64,000 bases of DNA. Origin: Octopus sinensis (Eukaryota). The stretch is taken from contig NC_043014.1 of assembly GCF_006345805.1 (NCBI RefSeq), positions 18,290,001-18,354,000 of the forward strand, in the 5' to 3' direction. Below are positions 44-60,785 of this stretch, one piece after another. The notes below the pieces were generated by a model. It saw only the letters and a program-made list of their open reading frames with translations. It made no database searches and had not been told where the DNA came from. A program made the translations under genes and the position numbers. Numbering within the stretch: the stretch's first letter is position 1; every line of letters starts with the position of its first letter.

Positions 44-588
44 TACAGTGTACATTTAAACACATAAGAAGTTCCATCATAGCACTCCTTACGCTAGAAG
101 GAACAGCTAAAGTACAAACCAATAATTTGGGATAAAATCTTTAAGGGAATGAAAAATAAAAAAATATTTACCATATATAGTCTATTGACTAATTTTTCTA
201 TACGCTAAGCTACTGTCTTCTTACATTTCACTTCCACTAAATATCTCTACTTCCATGCCTTTAAGCTTTATTCTAATTCGCCTATCGCTCTATATCTCTC
301 CACTATTTGTTTTCTGCTAATTTCTTTCTCCTTCTCTTTCTATAAACTACCTTTGGTGTTATATCTACAACGGATTTTTAAAAAATAACTTGACAGCGTT
401 CCTTTCACTATATACGCAGTCATCACATTCTGTTAAAATGTCTTATTGATGTGTTTGGTTTCTTTCTTTCCCTGGTGAGAAGATTGCATTGTTTTACACC
501 ATTTTATTCCTTCTGGAATAATACCAATGATGTCTTCGAAATATATGTCGGAAGTAAAAGAATTTGAATAATATCTGCGTTTAACACC

Positions 589-689
<101 letters not shown>

Positions 690-1602: not shown

Positions 1603-2691
1603 AGGTAATGGAGAAGTAAAAGGAGTGACTGCTCCCCCGAATACATTTTTTAAAATTGAGGCCTTTTCTAAAATATTCTTTTAAACTTTTTAGCAACAAA
1701 TATCAGAGGTTGTAAATTTCATACATAATGACATTGTTACTGAAACATGAATTTAATGAATAACTAAGGAAGTATTTCAAGTAATATAAGAGAAATGAAC
1801 TGATAATTGTTTGGCCTTTATTTATGTCCTCGCTTCCCCTAACGTTAGAACCTGCTATGCTTCTCATACAAACACACACACACACACAAATGTATATGCA
1901 TATATATATATATATATACGATGGGTCTCCAATACATTCATGCAGAATGTATTGGTTGGGCAGGGGATAAAATACACTTAACCTAAGTGTCACGCGGTGG
2001 GACTGAACTCGAAACTATGTTTGTAAAGTGATCTTATTGACCACACAGCCATACCCGCACCTATATTTAGCTCAATTAAAAATTGCTTTCATTTTGGTAC
2101 CTAGGTAATTTGTGATATGCACCTAAGTATTTATACTTCAAAATTACCTGAAATTTATTTCTTTCGTAGTATATAATATGTATTTATGTAAAGTTAATAT
2201 AATTTCAGAATTAATTTGTTAATCTCCATATTTTACATTACTTTTCATGTTAAATTTAGTTTCAACATTATTGACTTCCGAGCTCCCAGACTGGATTTTG
2301 CAAACATTTTTTGCTACACTTTGCTCTGTTATGTCGATAATTTCAAATTTCATTTAAATTTCAACTCAATGTTTACATTTCCTGTTGTACGATTCCCCTC
2401 GAGGAAATGTATATATAAATGTTTAACACAATTCTCATTTGATTTCTTTCGTACCGTTTTAATGTTTATGTACCCGAGTATTTTCCGCTTAAAATATAAA
2501 TGTCTCAGATTATATAAATATATGCATCTATAATATATAATATATTATAATTTTAAGATGAATACCTCGAGATATTTTTAACTCGTAATCGTATATTAGT
2601 GCACATAGACGCACAGATATACATACAGGTATACACTATTACAGCCACACACACACACATATATACATAACATATATATATATAAACAGGG

Positions 2692-2772
2692 TCTCACTGA
2701 TGAATTCTCCCTGGGCAAATAAATTATCTTGTTTGCTGAATTATAAAGAAACTGCAGGACTGCAGTCTGAGA
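2692..2772 (+). ncRNA. Type I hammerhead ribozyme-like motif, copy 1 (extended stem III)
   Basis: UCUCA-CUGAUGA-long stem II-GAAA-CUGCAGGACUGCAG-UC-UGAGA; stem I UCUCA/UGAGA; predicted cleavage after C2767. Confidence 0.7.
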
Positions 2773-3096
2773 ATTTTCCGGTTTAGTAAATGTTTTTATC
2801 TTCATTTCACTTAATTTATCAAGCTTCTGGATTCCTAGCACATATTTCGCCTTAATGTACTGATATATGAAAAATATGGCTTGTGTTAGTAATACCAGCG
2901 ATTATATTATTTTTTTTATTCTATCGCAATTTGATTTGTTTACATATTTCTCGATAAATTATGAGCGCCAGGCGATATACCAGAATTCCCTAGTGTTGTC
3001 GGGACGTTCGGAGTCTGCGCAGTGATATGATTATTAGGAAGAGTAACTCACTAGACGCACATGCTTCTAGTGAGTTAGGATCCCAGAAAAACAGGG

Positions 3097-3168
3097 TCTC
3101 ACTGATGAATTCTCCCTGGCAAATAAATTATCTTGTTTGCTGAATTAGAAAGAAACTGCAGTCTGAGA
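3097..3168 (+). ncRNA. Type I hammerhead ribozyme-like motif, copy 2
   Basis: UCUCA-CUGAUGA...GAAA-CUGCAG-UC-UGAGA; GUC cleavage triplet ends at 3163. Confidence 0.72.
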
Positions 3169-3491
3169 TTTTCCGGTTTAGTAAATTTTTTTATCTTCAT
3201 TTCACTTAATTTATCCAGCTTCTGTATTCCTAGCACATATTCGCCTAATGTACTGATATATGAAAAATATATGGCTTGTGTTAGTAATACCAGCGATTAT
3301 AATTATTTTTTATTCTATCGCAATTTGATTTGTTTACATATTTCTCGATAAATTATGAGCGGCAGGCGATATACCAGAATTCCCTAGTGTTGTCGGGACG
3401 TTCGGAGTCTGCGCAGTGATATGATTAGTTAGGAAGAGTAACTCACTAGACGCACATGCTTCTAGTGAGTTAGGATCCCAGAAAAACAGGG

Positions 3492-3564
3492 TCTCACTGA
3501 TGAATTCTCCCTGGGCACATAAATTATCTTGTTTGCTGAATTAGAAAGAAACTGCAGTCTGAGA
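3492..3564 (+). ncRNA. Type I hammerhead ribozyme-like motif, copy 3
   Basis: Same core; GUC ends at 3559. Confidence 0.72.
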
Positions 3565-3887
3565 ATTTTCCGGTTTAGTAAATGTTTTATCTTCATTTCA
3601 CTTAATTTATCAAGCTTCTGTATTCCTAGCACATATTTCGCCTTAATGTACTGAGATATATGAAAAATATATGGCTTGTGTTAGTAATACCAGCGATTAT
3701 AATTATTTTTTTATTCTATCGCAATTTGATTTGTTACATATTTCTCGATAAATGATGAGCGCCAGGCGAATACCAGAATTCCCTGTGTTGTCGGGACGTT
3801 CGGAGTCTGCGCAGTGATATGATTAGTTAGGAGAGTAACTCACTAGACGCACATGCTTCTAGTGAGTTAGGATCCCCAAAAAACAGG

Positions 3888-3960
3888 TCTCACTGATGAA
3901 TTCTCCCTGGGCAAATAAATTATCTTGTTTGCTGAATTAGAAAGAAACTGCAGTCTGAGA
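3888..3960 (+). ncRNA. Type I hammerhead ribozyme-like motif, copy 4
   Basis: Same core; GUC ends at 3955. Confidence 0.72.
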
Positions 3961-4286
3961 ATTTTCCGGTTTAGTAAATGTTTTTATCTTCATTTCACTT
4001 AATTTATCAAGCTTCTGTATTCCTAGCACATTTTTCGCCTAATGTACTGATATATGAAAAATATATGGCTTGTGTTAGTAATACCAGCGATTATAATTAT
4101 TTTTTTATTCTATCGCAATTTGATTTGTTTACATATTTCCTCGATAAATTATGAGCGCCGGCGATTACCAGAATTCCCTAGTGTTGTCGGGACGTTCGGA
4201 GTCTGCGCAGTGATATGATTAGTTTAGGAAGAGTAACTCACTAGACGCACATGCTTCTAGTGAGTTAGGATCCCAGAAAAACAGGG

Positions 4287-4357
4287 TCTCACTGATGAAT
4301 TCTCCTGGGCAAATAAATTATCTTGTTTGCTGATTAGAAAGAAACTGCAGTCTGAGA
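4287..4357 (+). ncRNA. Type I hammerhead ribozyme-like motif, copy 5
   Basis: Same core; GUC ends at 4352. Confidence 0.72.
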
Positions 4358-4675
4358 ATTTTCGGTTTAGTAAATGTTTTTATCTTCATTTCACTTAATT
4401 TATCAGCTTCGTATTCCTAGCACCTATTTCGCCTTAATGTACTGATATATGAAAAAATATGGCTTGTGTTAGTAATACCAGCGATTATAATATATTTTTT
4501 TATTCTATCGCAATTGATTTGTTTACATATTTCTCGATAAATTATGAGCGCCACGATATACCAGAATTCCCTAGTTTGTCGGACGTTCGGAGTCTGCGCA
4601 GTGATATGATTAGTTAGGAAGAGTAACTCACTAGACGCACATGCTTCTAGTGAGTTAGGATCCCAGAAAAACGGG

Positions 4676-4748
4676 TCTCACTGATGAATTCTCCCTGGGC
4701 AAATAAATTATCTTGTTTGCTGAATTAGAAATAAACTGCAGTCTGAGA
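4676..4748 (+). ncRNA. Hammerhead-like motif, copy 6, core mutated (GAAA to UAAA)
   Basis: CUGAUGA is intact but the catalytic G12 reads T (4732); likely inactive or a sequencing error. Confidence 0.55.
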
Positions 4749-4914
4749 ATTTTCCGGTTTAGTAAATGTTTTTATCTTCATTTCACTTAATTTATCAAGC
4801 TTCTGTATTCCTAGCACATATTCGCCTTAATGTACTGATATATGAAAAATATATGGCTTGTGTTAGTAATACCAGCGATTATAATTATTTTTTTATTCTA
4901 TCGCATTTGATTTG

Positions 4915-4962
<48 letters not shown>

Positions 4963-5059
4963 GATATACATACATACTGCAGATATAAATATACCTAAAT
5001 ACATACATACACACACATATATACATATATATATAGAATTGTACATACATATATGTGTA

Positions 5060-9729: not shown

Positions 9730-10389
9730 TATATACGTATATATATATTACTGATTACAAGATCAGTGATTATATATATTATATATATATATATATATAT
9801 ACACATTTTATATTAGCTAATATGTATATGTATACATGCACACGTAAATACATACATATATATGTAAATATATATGTCGACCTAGACGTACATATTTATA
9901 AAAGAAAGTGGTTATTATTCAACTCAATAATTGGTTGCGTAAGCAATTTTCTGAAAAGGAAATTTGAGTCACATATGACCTGAAGAGTGTGATTGTGTGC
10001 AAATATATCCGTGTATGTGTGTGCGTTTGTATAGACGTATGTATGTATGCATATATGTTCTTATATACATGCATATATAAATACAAATATATATAAATTT
10101 AAAAATATATATATACATATATATACATACAAGTATGTATGTAAGCATATATATATTTAGATGTGTGTATACATTAGTTGTTAATATATAAAAATGCTTA
10201 TGTACATAAATATGTGACTGTATATATATACATTACACACATGGTCATATTCACGTACGTACACACACACTAGCAATAAACGTTTTTGAGAGCCAGGAAT
10301 ATTTTATATATATATATAATAACTTCAGTATCTGAACTATCTGACAGCAATCCAACTTTCATGTGCGTGGTAGTATATATAATTTAGGT

Positions 10390-10463
10390 GGCCGGTTAGC
10401 TTAGTTGGTTGCAGTGTCGTGCTAATAACGCGAATGTCATGGGTTCGTGTCCCATACTTGTCA
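10390..10463 (+). tRNA. tRNA-Ile(AAT) pseudogene
   Basis: ggccggttagcttagttggtt...tcgtg-ctAATaa-cgcga...atggg-ttcgtgt-cccat-acttgtca. Anticodon and T stems pair; acceptor and D stems have mismatches and the T-loop A58 is lost. Confidence 0.8.
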
Positions 10464-10477
10464 GAAAGTTAGAGAAC

Positions 10478-27359: not shown

Positions 27360-28713
27360 TCACTTACCTGTTCTTTGGTTTTCACTGTCACCTGAATGTT
27401 CATTCCCAATACGAAGACCATCCATATCCATTCTTACTCCGAAACTGTCCTCCATATATTCCACGAATTCATCGCTCATTCTTGTATCTTTCACCTCCCA
27501 ATTCTCCCTTTCACACCTCAACACAAACTCATATATATTCTTCTTTTCCAGCACTGCATATCTGGTCCCATCCATTTCATACCATTCATACTCCTCCATT
27601 ACCCTTTCAACCTCTTTCTGTTCAGTCACAATATAAATGTTCGGCCTGGGTTCGTTTTCAAACTCTTGTCTGTCTGTATTATTATTTTTCTTTTGTTTTC
27701 TTGTTGGAGGGGAGCGGGTGATTTCACTGTCTGCAGGGGAAGGGTGGGATTCAGAGGGTGCGGGTGGTGTTGGAGTGGGTTGGGGCTTCGCACAGTTTTT
27801 CTTTTTCTTTCTTTTTCTCTTTTTTCTTTCTTTTTCTCTTTTTTCTTCCTTCTTCCCACTCTTGTTGCATCTCCTCTTCTGTCGTTTCTTTTTCCCTTTG
27901 GTTCTCTTTGGTTTCTTCATCTTTTGGGGCTTCCGCAACGATTTCCTTTTCTTTTTCCTTTGGTGGGGAAGGGCAGTAGGCTCTTATGTGACCCCTCAGG
28001 CCACACTTGTAGCACCTGGGCGCCCTACCCTCCACCCACACTCTCATAATAATATTTCCAGTTTTTATACTGTCCGTAAGCTTTTCTATAACTTCCGCCT
28101 CCGTCTGTATGTTCATTACTAGTGTGGCACCTCTCACGCCTTCATATTTTATAATGGCATGGAGGATGTCCACTTTATCTTCATTTCCTTTGATAACCGC
28201 AGCCGTTATTAATTCGCCCTCTAGGTGTGGAGGTATTCCTTCCACCCTAATTCTGGTGGTCCTTCTATTCAAATACGAAGGGAACAAGTAAAACTTTTCT
28301 GTACTCACCACCTTGGCTGCTATATTCCTGGCTGCTTTCTCATTTTTAAATTGTACCGTTATGGTTCCATATTCTAATCCTTTTGTCATGTACACAATTT
28401 CTTCTCCTGTCTGTTTGAAAGCCTCTTCAATTGCTTCCATGTTAATCACTTCCATTTTTCTACCTCCATTCATAAATACTTTATATTTAATGGTTCTACG
28501 ATGGAACCAGTCTCCGCGCCCTGCTAGAGGCAACAGCTCAACCTCTCCGTTCTCCTCCTCCTTCATGAACTCCTGGAAGTCCGTCAACTTAGCCAGGTCT
28601 ATCTCTTTTTCTGTTGACTTCTTCGCTATATCTGCGTAGGTGCTTTCCATTTTTTTCACCGCCAACTCCTCCTCAGATGTCGACGAATTTTCAGAGAAAT
28701 TTCTCCCTTCCAT
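27360..28713 (-). CDS. Gag-like ORF1 with CCHC zinc knuckle (L1/Tx1-type retroelement ORF1), one frameshift
   Basis: 320-aa ORF 28713-27751 contains CYKCGLRGHIRAYC, preceded by an RRM-like region and followed by a Lys/Glu-rich tract. It continues in the frame of ORF 27938-27360 after an A-rich run (~450 aa if joined). Confidence 0.75.
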
Positions 28714-29439
28714 CTCATCCGTTTGGTAAGGCGGCTCATAGTCGCCTCAGACCGAAAAACGGCCTCCCGAACAGAAAACGTGCGACGCACAGAACCAGTG
28801 CGACGCGAAACCGCACCAACCGACGTTCCAATTCCGCAACCACAATTCACTTTTTGTTCTTTTTTCTTTTTGAACCGAATTTTACAGAGCGCAAAAAAAA
28901 CGCGACCTTTTTTCTCTACATTGTATACTTTATAGACAATAGTCTTTTCTTTATTTTAATTTTTTATTATCCATCTGGACTATTCCATTTCTGCACGCTA
29001 ATTTTTATTTTATTCCCATTCACGTGAAACCACTTATTCAAGATCAAGTCATTCATGCAATTTTATACCAATTGCTATTTTTACTTTTTTTATGTTACGA
29101 TTATATTATACTTTAGTTTGATTTTAATTATTACTTACTACGTATAATTCAATTGTTATTATTATTTTTATTGTTAAAGTAAAAGTATCTGACATAAAAT
29201 AGAGAAATGTTTTTGTTTCACTTTTAACACGTAATACTGAAATAGTGGGGAAGATATGATATTGCTATGGGCTCGCTCTAGGCAAGAAGTTGAACATTTT
29301 TTTTTGCCCATGAACCTACAAGGACTCAAAGTAAGGCATGTGTAAAATTTGAATGAAATTGGTTGTGTAGTTCTTAAGTTTTAGGGAAACACACAGACAG
29401 ACAGATAGACAAACACACATTCTCAGTTTTATATATATA

Positions 29440-36703: not shown

Positions 36704-38404
36704 AAGTATGGGGGTTTAGTTCACAGGTGATCTAAAACGATTAGGCACGCTAGGTAAGTACTGTAACGGATTACTAAGGCTCCAAGGTTATAGCCGAGAC
36801 GGTAGTTATGGAGACATTGCAAATTTCCGATGCAGCGGATATATAATTGTTATCCAATAATAATGTGTCAAAATGTCTTGAGATGCTTGCCTTGCTTTAA
36901 CGTGTGTTGTCCTTTTTAACAATTCTGTCTCTATATATATCGTTGCTATTATGCGAAAGTGTCGTAAGTCTGAAACGTAGCTTTTCAAAGAACGAAAAAA
37001 TAGATTTACTATTCCATTTTTTTTATTTATTAGCAATAGTTTACGTACATATATTTTGTATTGTAGTATGATTATAGACATTTATATATCTATTTATTTA
37101 TAATATATGTGGATGTGTGTGTTTGTATATATGTGTATTTGATGATGTGTGTATATACATTTATTTATTTGTATGTGTGTGGGTGTGTATATATTGGTGT
37201 AAGTGTATATATTGAGTATTGTATGTATGTACATGTATGTATGAGTGTGCATATGTGTATGGGTGTAAGTGTGTGTATATATGTGTGTATATATGTATAT
37301 ATATATGTATGTGTATGGATATTTTCTTATTTATAATTTTTATGTATTTATTAATCTTATTAGATTTTTAGAATATATTTAATAATAAGTGGTTTTTAAT
37401 CATTTAATTTATTTTGTATTAAGTTTCATTTATCATAGTTATTTTATTAATAAATATTATAGTACAGAGAGATTTTATTCTGTATTTGTGAATTCATTCT
37501 TCTTACAATAATAAACATATAATTTTCCATTCATAATCTTTAATAAACGTAGGTTCCTCACGCGTAATGAATTCTTCAACAATTTATTCTTTTTTTTGCT
37601 AATAACGTAATTCCATGAGTATTCTTATAAACGCTGTATAAGACGTTTTTTGAATCAAAATTTTAGTTCATTGTTTAAACCTCGCCAAGATAAGTATGTA
37701 TCTTTTTAAGATCTTCAAATTGTAAATTTTAATATTGTGTAAGCCTTTGGAGTAATAATATTCTCCTTATGTAAATATCGTTGTTTATGTAACGATCTAA
37801 TTATCGTAATTTTCTATGTTATTAGATATTAAATAAATTAGATAAACTTTGATAAAATCAGATATGTTTCGACTAAAGATTGGTCTAGGCCATGTCTAAT
37901 TTAATAGCATAATTTATATTAGATAATTATTCCCATTCATAATTATATTTATAGTACTTATAGTATTTATTTGATACTATATTACTAAGAATTGAATATT
38001 TCTATAAGTATTTTACATAAGATTTTGAAAGCCTGCTTAAGTTAGTTTATCTGTATTTTGAAATTAGCTATTTCATCTTTAAATATGAAAAATTAAATTT
38101 ATTAGGTTTTCATTATATACAATTATTTATAGAGATTATTTTAGATCTTGATTATAATATTTATATATATTTTCATTGATAATTTATATATATTAGTCAT
38201 TTTAAATATTTATGTAATTAGATATAGACTAATATTGATATTAGATTATGGGTTTTCTAGCTTATAAATTGAAGTTAATATTTAACATTATAGTCGATTT
38301 CGATATAATCATATTTAATAATAGAGTTTATTATAAGTAAAATTATTATATTATATATATTATTTATATCTTAAAAATATCGATTATATTTTAGATATTT
38401 AAAC

Positions 38405-38468
38405 CATCTGATGAATGACTGCGACTCAAAATTTTGAAGAAGTTAGCAGGCATGAAACGATCGTAGTG
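38405..38468 (+). ncRNA. Minimal type I hammerhead-like motif
   Basis: CAU-CUGAUGA-augacugc...gcaggcau-GAAA-CGAUCG-UA-GUG; palindromic stem III. Confidence 0.6.
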
Positions 38469-38721
38469 TGATATTAATTATATTTTTTAAATAATTTTGT
38501 TATATATTTAAATAATATAAATTAAATAATCTTATGTATTGGCTTAAGTTTTCATAGTTTGATTTGCCTAATAGTGGTTTTGTCTCTAATTTAATATAAT
38601 ATATATTATATATATATATATAATATATATAATATATGAATATATATATATTATATATATATATTATAATATATATATATATATATATATAATATGGATA
38701 TATATATATATAATATATATG

Positions 38722-38761
<40 letters not shown>

Positions 38762-57870: not shown

Positions 57871-57873
<3 letters not shown>

Positions 57874-60785
57874 ACTGCAGCCACAAAAGAAGCTGGATAC
57901 TCACTCAAACCCATCCAAACAGGAGTACCACCACCCAAACAAACCCTGTGGATAAATAACATCCAAAACAAAATACAACAAATGAGAAAAGATCTGTCGA
58001 TTCTTAATGAAATCAGTAGACAATCAACGCTACTGAGTAACAAAAAGAAAACAAAAATACTCCGCAAATATAACATCACAGAAAAAGATTTACCTGAGAT
58101 AAAAGAAAAGCTGAAGCAAGATATCCTTGCCAAAGCACAAAGGATCCGCCGGTACGAGAAACGCCAGCGCTTCTTTGAACAAAACAAAAAGTTCAACTCC
58201 AACCCCAAAAAGTTCTACCAAGAACTTGGCAAAAATAAAATAGAAATCACTGCAGCACCAATGGCAGAAGAAGTGGAAGAATTCTGGAGAGAAATATGGT
58301 CGGCGAACGAACAACCAAAAAAAAGGAGTATCAAAACAACAAACTCAGCATCTGAGCAACTTTGGGCCCCCATAACAACTGAAGAGGTCGCCCAGGCACT
58401 GCAAAGACTAAGCAACTGGAAGGCACCTGGGCACGACAAGATCCCCAACTTCTGGTTGAAATATCTAACAGGAATGCATAAAAAGCTGGCTGAAATCTTT
58501 AACAACATACTAGCAGAGCCAGAGACAATGCCTGAATGGCTCACGAAGGGGAAGACCATCTTAATTCCCAAATCAAATGAGAGAGCAAAACCAGAAAACT
58601 ACAGACCAATAACCTGTCTCCCTACAATGTACAAGGCATTTACTGCAGTGATATCGCAAAGGTTGAACAAGCACCTGGACGAAAACAACCTGTTTCCAGA
58701 AGAGCAGAAAGGATGCCGCAAAGGCTCATATGGCTGTTAAGATCAACTAATGATTAATAAAGCCATAACTGAAGACAGCCACAGAAAGAAGAAAGGCGTC
58801 AGTATAGCCTGGATCGACTACAAAAAGGCGTTTGGTAGCATCCCCCACACATGGATCCTCGAAACACTAGCCATTAACAAAGTAGCACCAACAATTATAA
58901 AATTCATAGGGCACTCTATGAATAAATGGCAAACAGTACTACAGCTCCAAACAAAAATGGGACTCATGAAAACCAAAGCCATCCCCATTAGAAGAGGAAC
59001 ATTCCAGGGAGACACGCTCTCTCCGCTCCTTTTCTGCTTGGCACTGTCACCTCTATCTGATATGCTAAATAGAACTGGATGCGGATATAAATGTTACAGC
59101 AAAACGATCAGCCACCTTTTATATATGGATGACCTAAAACTATACGCTGCAAATAACAAACAGCTGGAAATACTATTAAAGGCAGTTCATGGATTTACCA
59201 AAGAAATAGATATGAAATTTGGATTAGAAAAATGCGCCAAAGTAACCATGAAAAGAGGAAAACTGGTTAAGAGTAGCAACATCATACTAGATAAAACCAA
59301 TGAAATAAAAGAATTAGACCAAAGCTAAACTTACAAATACTTAGGAATCCATGAACTAGATAAGACACAACACACACAAATGAAAGAGAAAATAAAAAAA
59401 AAGAATATTATAGACGAGTTAGATCAATACTAAAAACAGAGCTCAATACTAAAAACAAGATAATACGTATTAACACTTTAGCTGTCCCAGTTATAAGTTA
59501 CAGCTACAATATCCTTAACTGGACACTAAATGAACTGACCAAAATAGATAGGAAAACAAGAAAAATAATGACAGGATCTAGGATGCATCACCCAAAATCC
59601 GACATAGAAAGACTATATATACAACGTATAGAAGGTGGTAGAAGCCGTATGCAGCTGGAAAACTACTATAAAATAACCACCATAGGACAGCAAAAATATC
59701 TACTTCAGAAGGAAGGAAAACTGATACAAATAGCGGCAAAACACGAGCAAAACAAAAAACTGTTCTCAGTATTTAAGGAAGCTGACAAATACAAACAAGA
59801 AATCATACCACCTAATAAATATGAAGAAGAAGAAGAAGAAGAAGAAGAAGAAGAAACAACAAAAGCTATAAAACAAATGAAATCCAAACTAAAACTAGAA
59901 CAGCAAAGAACCATGATAAAACGATGGCATGGAAAGCCCCATCATGGTAAATACTGGACTAAACAAAACGCAAAAGAAATAGACAAAGAAAAATCCCAGC
60001 AATGGTTGAGAAGCTCATGACTCAAAGCAGAGACAGAGGGATTTTTAATTGCAGCACAAGACCAAACCTCCCCACCAGAAATTACCAAAAGCATGTAATG
60101 AAAAGAAATATAACAAGTAACTGCAGAATATATAGAGATGGACAAGAAACAATAAATCATATTATCTCTGGCTGCCCAGTCCTGGCTAAGAAGGAATATG
60201 TTCATAGACATGACAAAGTTGGAACCTACATACACTGGAAGCTATGCCAACATTATGGAGTAACAACAGAAAAAAGATGGTATAGGCACACACCAGAAAA
60301 GGTCACAGTAGACGAGAAAGCAACCATACTCTGGGATATGCCGATACACACAGATAGAGAAATTAAGGCCAACAGACCAGATATAGTTGTCAGAGATCAT
60401 GAAGAAAAAAATGCTTTCTAATTGATGTATCAATACCGGCAGATGACAACGTGCCTCTAAAAGAAATGGGAGGAACTTTCAAAATACAAAGACCTGGAAA
60501 TAGAGGTAACCAGAATGTGGAATCTAAAAACAGAAACAATTCCTATCATAGTAGGTGCATTAGGCATGATAAAAAAATATTCAGACAAATACATAACAAA
60601 GACACCAGGACTTACAAATACATATAACATACAGAAATTTGCACTACTAGGCACTGCACACATCCTACGCAGAACACTTTCCATACAATAACCATCAGAG
60701 CACCACAACAAATCACAGCACATACCTAAGGCACACAGAACTGCGCTCGGTAGTGAAGTGAAAGCACGCTATAAAAATAAAACTA

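Follow-up and report, generated by a model that had tools for sequence, protein, structure and literature searches.

A dispersed hammerhead repeat family of Octopus sinensis with the anatomy of a retrozyme and an insertion footprint in (TA)n

We analysed a stretch of 64,000 nucleotides of the Octopus sinensis genome (the window hereafter; RefSeq assembly GCF_006345805.1, contig NC_043014.1, positions 18,290,001 to 18,354,000 of the forward strand), which carries at positions 2684-4916 a tandem array of units of about 396 bp with hammerhead ribozyme motifs. The array is a member of a young dispersed family, and by its anatomy this family belongs with the non-long-terminal-repeat (non-LTR) retrozymes, a class that has itself already been published. 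We consider it fairly likely that the array represents one insertion of this family, whose RNA likely cuts itself, circularises and is reverse-transcribed into nicked (TA)n, probably by a Penelope-like element (PLE). New here is the insertion footprint, with its fixed 3' end and (TA)n target. A predicted loop 1-loop 2 pseudoknot was missed in a preliminary description made from the letters of the window.

The footprint was read from 57 mapped loci, which correspond to 56 insertions (two loci cover one array of about 28 units, and two others look like a duplicate pair); the first 37 mapped arrays were picked by similarity and the remaining 19 in genome order. In 55 of the 56 insertions the 3' end falls at a single point of the unit, about 176 nt beyond the predicted cut site and abutting (TA)n, and the sole exception ends at the cut site itself. 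The 5' ends are scattered over the unit. Of 37 arrays, 31 have TA no more than 25 nt away from this end, against a background of 11% of flank positions. A conserved hairpin stands just before the 3' end point, and the unit reads ACAUAU just past it. Exact junctions of this 3' end with TA number 190 across the genome (control 0), alongside 338 exact internal unit junctions. The first 30 end junctions in genome order belong to insertions of 36 nt to more than 1.5 kb, 13 of them shorter than 176 nt and 18 under one unit, and array lengths overall run from 36 nt up to about 28 units. Among the sister subfamilies described below, the homologous point in TA is also the end of 24 of 30 loci; of the other six, two stop at another TA-like motif inside the unit, two continue further, and two have a different end. 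Inversions of the 5' end were found at two of the 57 family loci and several more times in the sisters. Target-primed reverse transcription characteristically leaves such traces, namely a constant 3' end, truncation on the 5' side and a favoured target, and we regard spread by target-primed insertion into (TA)n as very likely. Since both flanks are (TA)n, a target-site duplication is unreadable. The 3' end differs from the cut site, and the template therefore spans unit junctions.

Two patterns among the 5' ends were set aside. Among the first 36 arrays, six have their 5' end at the cut site; this apparent pile-up is absent from the 19 genome-order arrays and is probably a product of query selection. 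A cluster 144-181 nt from the 3' end (6 of 30) was noticed post hoc and left unused. At L042 and at L195/L196, two insertions of the same length stand in tandem with TA between them, either because the entire insertion was duplicated or because the assembly repeats it. Short duplicated or folded-back stretches with the palindromic stem III and the cut site at their centre occur downstream of the hammerhead in L136, at 2748-2767 of the window and at the 5' end of L033; they suggest slippage of the reverse transcriptase at this place.

The preliminary description had proposed looking for dispersed arrays genome-wide, and these were found. When the unit was searched against its own microsatellite-rich genome of 2.72 Gb, at least 235 matches on many contigs were recovered (37 of 754 candidates were scored). 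An exact 22-letter core pattern has 400 genome matches and a pattern for the sister relatives 489, with none in either control. These relatives were first traced from loose contig ends in four public sequencing runs, three of them presumably of RNA, whose assembled contigs have low depth and carry no information on RNA ends, strand or circles. The sister subfamilies are 66-77% identical to the unit at full length (subfamily D, whose locus is broken, is omitted) and are likewise arranged in tandem or cross the same junction. A 10-mer of the unit that resembles a B box was set aside because it is absent from most sisters. The open literature that we searched holds no account of the family or of its end footprint; closed papers, supplements that possibly list octopus motifs, and repeat databases lay outside this search.

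Within the window, Tandem Repeats Finder reports the array at 2684-4924 with a period of 394, 5.6 copies and 94% matches, which bears out the 5.6 units of about 396 bp at 2684-4916 in the preliminary description; the final family base is 4916, with (TA)n directly after it. The parts of the array, and the tracts that border it, are as follows.

2684..4916, + strand: retrozyme insertion of 5.6 head-to-tail units of about 396 bp, 5'-truncated at about unit position 325 and finishing at the family's fixed 3' point
2684..2789, + strand: hammerhead copy 1, with a 9-nt duplication that gives a predicted 6-bp stem III, and one broken stem II pair; predicted cut after 2767
3089..3184, + strand: hammerhead copy 2, core intact; predicted cut after 3163
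3484..3581, + strand: hammerhead copy 3, core intact, starting at 3497 and with G12 at 3548; predicted cut after 3559
3881..3977, + strand: hammerhead copy 4, core intact, pseudoknot strand short of one G; predicted cut after 3955
4279..4373, + strand: hammerhead copy 5, core intact, 1-nt deletions elsewhere; predicted cut after 4352
4667..4765, + strand: hammerhead copy 6, with U in place of G12 at 4732; predicted cut site 4743
3487-3491 (CAGGG) with 3509-3513 (CCCUG), + strand: predicted loop 1-loop 2 pseudoknot of copy 3
3439..3472, + strand (also 3044-3077, 3836-3869, 4234-4267 and 4624-4657): 12-bp hairpin 5' of each hammerhead
4875..4904, + strand: conserved hairpin about 12 nt 5' of the fixed 3' end, one per unit
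4917..4965, no strand: (TA)n tract at the 3' junction, the putative nicked target and primer
2659..2683, no strand: TA-rich tract at the 5' junction

The six GUC sites (2767, 3163, 3559, 3955, 4352 and 4743) are spaced 396, 396, 396, 397 and 391 nt apart, so that all six predicted cleavage sites were recovered at the positions first given, 391-397 nt apart. The unit of 396 bp has 36% GC and is non-coding, and the absence of an open reading frame (ORF) was confirmed, the longest frame with a methionine start in the array having 58 amino acids. Tandem non-coding units of 150-450 bp with low GC and one type I hammerhead each are what characterises non-LTR retrozymes, together with dispersal of the arrays under signs of retrotransposition, seen here as the fixed 3' end, 5' truncation, TA target and inversions; the computational checks thus support the retrozyme reading of the preliminary description. 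Its claim of a hammerhead in each unit holds as far as six motifs are present, but not all of them are intact, given the duplication and broken stem II pair of copy 1 and the replaced G12 of copy 6, which is predicted to be inactive if the U is a real base. Single-nucleotide deletions occur in copies 2, 4, 5 and 6, and against its own majority the array shows 5.6 substitutions and 5 gap columns per unit. That majority sequence is identical to the one of a clean 13-copy array on another contig, and some of the lesions in the window may therefore be assembly errors. All six CUGAUGA cores of the array lie on the + strand; none was found on its - strand, which gives no support for a viroid-like replication through two strands. 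The 12-bp hairpin upstream of the hammerhead retains its base pairing despite sequence changes in the sister subfamilies, and the hairpin at 4875..4904 is a candidate recognition element for the reverse transcriptase.

The type I hammerhead core (C3-U4-G5-A6-N7-G8-A9, G12-A13-A14, A15.1-U16.1 and H17) is intact in five of the six window copies, and its 3' part in 235 of 239 family copies found by pattern; the 5' part was required by that pattern. N7 alone among the core positions shows frequent variation (108 A and 83 U among 191 copies). The window copies show UCUCA/UGAGA in stem I, UUCU/AGAA in stem II, a self-complementary stem III of 2 bp and an A.A mismatch at 10.1-11.1; stem I, the palindromic stem III and the A.A mismatch had all been noted before. 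An extension of stem I via aaacagg/ccgguuu had also been suggested. CAGG more likely pairs with CCUG in loop 2, since the opposing CC is missing in subfamily B, in which CAGG/CCUG is kept. The A.A mismatch occurs in 228 of the 239 copies of the window's subfamily, whereas the sisters have G-C (B, C, D and F) or A.C (E1-E3). The caveat that the preliminary description attached to this position is softened by these sisters and by the wide spread of the A.A subfamily, but it is not removed: a canonical hammerhead pairs 10.1 with 11.1, usually as G-C, and the window's subfamily fails to do so. Its ribozyme is a variant rather than a canonical hammerhead. Alternatively, the position could be read as an extra unpaired base ahead of stem II, as is mentioned in PMC4209133.

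Comparison across subfamilies argues that the fold is maintained. In a set of 18 sequences that covers every subfamily, pairing holds in 94.4% of helix cells, and 29 cells show two-sided changes; none of 500 shuffles reaches the observed values, and slid alignments pair at 31-48%. Covariation in stems I and II, another check that the preliminary description had named, was thereby seen: C-G is replaced by U-A in stem I, and three pairs of stem II change on both sides, while stem III is invariant and hence uninformative. In the window's subfamily stem II has shifted its register, with both strands altered and four pairs kept beneath the A.A mismatch. The pseudoknot, which joins the strand 5' of stem I to the internal loop of stem II, is predicted in 10 of 10 subfamily representatives with 4-6 bp. 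Its four main pairs are kept in 14 of 14 sister sequences, one of them changing from C-G to A-U in two of the sequences, and the fifth pair occurs as G-C, C-G, U-A and U-G types; with these compensatory changes, the predicted pseudoknot would supply the loop 1-loop 2 tertiary contact of a hammerhead. We are highly confident that the hammerhead fold is under selection in the superfamily. A covariance model trained exclusively on the sister subfamilies recovers each of the six window copies (E 1.8e-15 to 8.5e-10) and has no other match across the 64 kb, and the six-copy signal is far beyond chance. The Rfam hammerhead models, which the preliminary description had recommended, gave no match in the window (E up to 10), nor did they on four sister loci (E up to 1e-4), of which three have G-C. 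We infer that this reflects a limit of the models for such a long stem II and is not a test of function.

An assembly artefact or a chance look-alike of a hammerhead could be argued from this Rfam result and from the noisy window units with their 5 gap columns each. It would have to account for dozens of loci with unique flanks, for the presence of the family in four public runs from four studies and for the covariation of stems and pseudoknot, and it is already largely refuted; we assign it a negligible probability.

Several observations weigh against the favoured explanation of the array. A mismatch at 10.1-11.1 was a ground for rejection in a survey of hammerheads unless activity had been shown (PMC3088659), and no paper on the activity of A.A hammerheads turned up in the open literature. 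The covariation counts reflect few lineage events, and the count for stem II is partly due to the one-base register shift. The fifth pseudoknot pair is open in 7 of the 14 sister sequences, and, taken sequence by sequence, 1-26% of shuffles form a pseudoknot of this length. For copy 4 on its own, the minimum-energy fold differs from the hammerhead (z -1.28), and circular folds are modestly or no more stable than shuffles (z -2.6, -0.5 and -0.7). In Xenopus, one of nine predicted retrozyme dimers was cleaved in vitro (bioRxiv 10.64898/2026.07.22.740005). Active U.U hammerheads and common pseudoknots were also reported in PMC3088659, and motifs with a weak palindromic helix III were described as acting in dimers (PMC4209133). 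We consider self-cleavage by the A.A subfamily likely.

Each array tends to carry one haplotype, and this bears on the form of the template. Among 165 full units, divergence is 1.07% within arrays and 2.74% between them. N7 is uniform at every one of the 42 loci (41 arrays) that hold at least two hammerheads, in a family that is split 128 A to 110 U. Array-private substitutions are present in all units, including partial ends, of L053 (11/11), L047 (6/6), L058 (5/5), L066 (5/5) and L036 (4/4), with a count of 7/8 for L037; 14 haplotypes were counted among the 22 arrays with at least three full units. In a very clean array, L053:2300-6460, a single-base variant recurs strictly every third unit over 11 units. 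A circular monomer, and occasionally a circular trimer, is the simplest template, because priming is internal and the reverse transcriptase crosses the junction many times. We therefore think that arrays are probably synthesised on a circular template. Two points tell against this conclusion: long-read consensus might homogenise the units inside an array, and some long arrays (L035, L040 and L048) carry variants in irregular subsets of units, which fit a linear multimer, local expansion or polishing artefacts.

The same target-primed insertion could instead use a linear, uncleaved multimer as template, with a nearly dead A.A hammerhead and arrays copying arrays. The A.A mismatch and the 2-bp stem III would agree with such a scheme, uniform daughters would be expected from uniform source arrays, and one haplotype is indeed common to five arrays on different contigs. 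The irregular variants in L035, L040 and L048 are compatible with it, and contigs of two public runs span the predicted cut site, as they would also do with a circle. Yet private substitutions fixed in every unit require a bottleneck of one monomer, the core and stems were kept while stem II shifted its register on both strands, and a linear template demands that reverse transcription begin each time at one and the same position inside a long RNA. We consider this scheme rather unlikely. Even less probable, in our view, is a satellite model in which retrotransposed pieces of one or two units were later expanded in place by unequal crossing-over (bioRxiv 10.64898/2026.07.22.740005). It would likewise produce uniform arrays and a period-3 block, and is in line with the whole-insertion duplication at two loci (L042, L195/L196) and with the irregular variants shared within long arrays. 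It is opposed by the continuous range of lengths from 36 nt upward, by an array of 12 units on another contig, which agrees in consensus with the array of the window and carries 0.08 substitutions per unit, and by the lack of a significant link between copy number and internal divergence (rho 0.30, p 0.18, 22 arrays; a weak test).

For the cycle on a circular template we propose the following steps. The array would be transcribed by read-through, probably by RNA polymerase II, because the unit has four T4-T7 runs that would stop RNA polymerase III. The hammerhead, whose structure is backed by covariation, would then cut after GUC to release monomers of 396 nt. The CAGGG/CCCUG pseudoknot would assist the cut, and two palindromic stems III probably contribute by pairing with each other. 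Cutting is probably slowed by the A.A mismatch, so that some multimers would persist. Closure of the monomer would fall to a host ligase, an analogy drawn from coral, mussel and axolotl (PMC7229834). Finally, in a step whose footprint is observed and whose enzyme is putative, an endonuclease would nick (TA)n, the free end would anneal to ACAUAU about 176 nt past the cut site, and the reverse transcriptase would run through the unit junction until it drops off. Such a step would yield the fixed 3' end, the variable 5' end, occasional 5' inversions and arrays of a single haplotype. In a bolder form, which we offer tentatively and regard as doubtful as a whole, the arrays would record directly in the genome how a self-cleaved RNA circle was copied by rolling-circle, target-primed reverse transcription; an intact PLE reverse transcriptase would read the hairpin and ACAUAU without kinship to its own end, and a slow A.A hammerhead braced by the pseudoknot would let multimeric circles, as in the period-3 array, serve as templates.

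The helper could be a PLE. Remnants of a PLE reverse transcriptase and of GIY-YIG had been reported for the window and were not found there (tblastn with six PLE proteins of the genome, best E 0.29; profiles, best E 0.44), in a search that PLE clades unlike those sampled could escape. The reverse transcriptase that the window does hold, at 57871-60421 (+), is a broken LINE-type (long interspersed nuclear element) enzyme with RVT_1 and zf-RVT domains between (AAT)n tracts; we take it to resemble R4/Dong elements. A genome search for GIY-YIG, in which 150 of 5029 candidates were scored, recovered young PLEs with intact reverse transcriptase and C-terminal GIY-YIG frames, their intact ORFs measuring 775-883 amino acids from stop to stop and their copies being up to 99% identical. 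They carry the CX2-5CxxC linker that is given for Neptune and Nematis (PMC8557442). The 3' ends of these PLEs also abut (TA)n, and one retrozyme is located in the TA tract directly behind a PLE 3' end. What counts against a PLE is that the unit has no detectable homology to 38 GIY-YIG/PLE loci, a sample of the PLEs (blastn and nhmmer; end alignments p 0.07-0.99). Homology to a PLE terminal repeat, by which a non-autonomous derivative of a PLE pseudo-LTR would be recognised, was thus lacking among the sampled PLEs, and no PLE ORF is joined to 30 family 3' ends other than via a shared TA tract. A visual likeness of the unit's 3' end to PLE 3' ends was rejected as no better than shuffles. In three PLEs (L088, L092 and L094), a hammerhead-like motif near the 3' end, read by eye, apparently has U3-A8 for C3-G8, a variant that has been described (PMC4209133).

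The same cycle could be served by a helper outside the sampled PLEs, either another PLE family or a LINE, as might be argued from the lack of 3' sequence in common with the sampled PLEs, from the small share of GIY-YIG candidates scored and from the presence of LINE reverse transcriptases. The (TA)n target and end anatomy are the same as in the young PLEs, however, the 5' inversions (2 of 57 loci, more in sisters) are as described for PLEs, a poly(A) tail is missing, and the LINE of the window lies in (AAT)n and not (TA)n. We regard such a helper as unlikely. The link between PLEs and the retrozyme is circumstantial, and a PLE remains a reasonably probable helper.

Other elements in the window and at the scored loci deserve mention. 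At 433-666 (+) lies another hammerhead-bearing repeat whose core is mutated; it shares 91% identity with a copy in L119 that looks intact. A hammerhead-like motif of a third family, with the palindromic loop GAUC, is located at 38392-38745 (+) and ends in (TA)n; L076 holds an inverted pair of that family. Unrelated hammerhead-like motifs are numerous (L071, L090, L091, L093, L095, L115, L141 and others), and the stem III loop is palindromic in 10 of 12 distinct matches with loops other than UGCA/UGUA, a feature that the scan did not demand. The window further contains an open frame of 331 codons at 27751-28746 (-) with a weak CCHC zinc knuckle (E 0.017), like a retroelement ORF1 or gag, and a tRNA-Ile(AAT)-like sequence at 10389-10464 (+), possibly derived from a short interspersed nuclear element.

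How animal retrozymes re-enter DNA, and by which enzyme, is stated to be open (PMC7229834, PMC7761336, bioRxiv 10.64898/2026.07.22.740005), and retrozyme repeats are said to bear no motif that indicates a helper (PMC7761336). In the octopus family both the priming site and the target are defined, the insertions are young and nearly identical, and the same genome holds an intact candidate reverse transcriptase-endonuclease, so that a reconstitution test can be designed. It also constitutes a natural series of hammerheads, with G-C, A.C and A.A at 10.1-11.1 and a covarying pseudoknot, that is overlooked by Rfam. Hammerheads in a cephalopod are unsurprising, since 235 Rfam hammerhead_1 matches were counted earlier in the giant squid genome (PMC6962438); the available part of PMC8490949 adds nothing further on mechanism.

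Non-LTR retrozymes were defined, with circles in coral, mussel and axolotl, in PMC7229834, where a PLE reverse transcriptase acting on a primed circle is put forward as a hypothesis. The octopus family resembles these metazoan elements in its tandem non-coding units with less than 45% GC, one type I hammerhead each and many loci, in a 2-bp stem III with a tetraloop and in the PLEs of the same genome; its unit of 396 bp stands next to the 350-390 bp of mussel retrozymes, and axolotl HHR_Amex2 also has a mismatch (U.U) at the base of stem II (PMC7229834). Unlike them, it combines a long stem II and internal loop with a predicted pseudoknot in place of the usual loop contacts, has A.A or A.C at 10.1-11.1, and shows a defined priming site and (TA)n target. 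The retrozymes of Xenopus, which were tied to PLE ends and for which local amplification was favoured, derive from PLE pseudo-LTRs and likewise occur as monomers, dimers and multimers at many loci alongside endonuclease-positive (EN+) PLEs, whereas the octopus unit has no homology to the ends of sampled PLEs; the Xenopus study did not cover molluscs, and its available part contains no mapping of insertion ends (bioRxiv 10.64898/2026.07.22.740005). With EN+ PLEs that bear the CX2-5CxxC linker (Neptune/Nematis type), the family shares a type I hammerhead with a palindromic loop III, microsatellite targeting, 5' truncation and 5' inversions, but its unit lacks an ORF, has a full rather than a minimal hammerhead and is short and arranged in long tandem arrays (PMC8557442, PMC4209133). 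Like the pseudoknot-stabilised hammerheads of Perreault 2011 (PMC3088659), finally, it has base pairs that connect the region of stem I with that of stem II, though here the predicted pseudoknot joins a stem I bulge strand to the internal loop of stem II, in a repetitive animal motif of type I.

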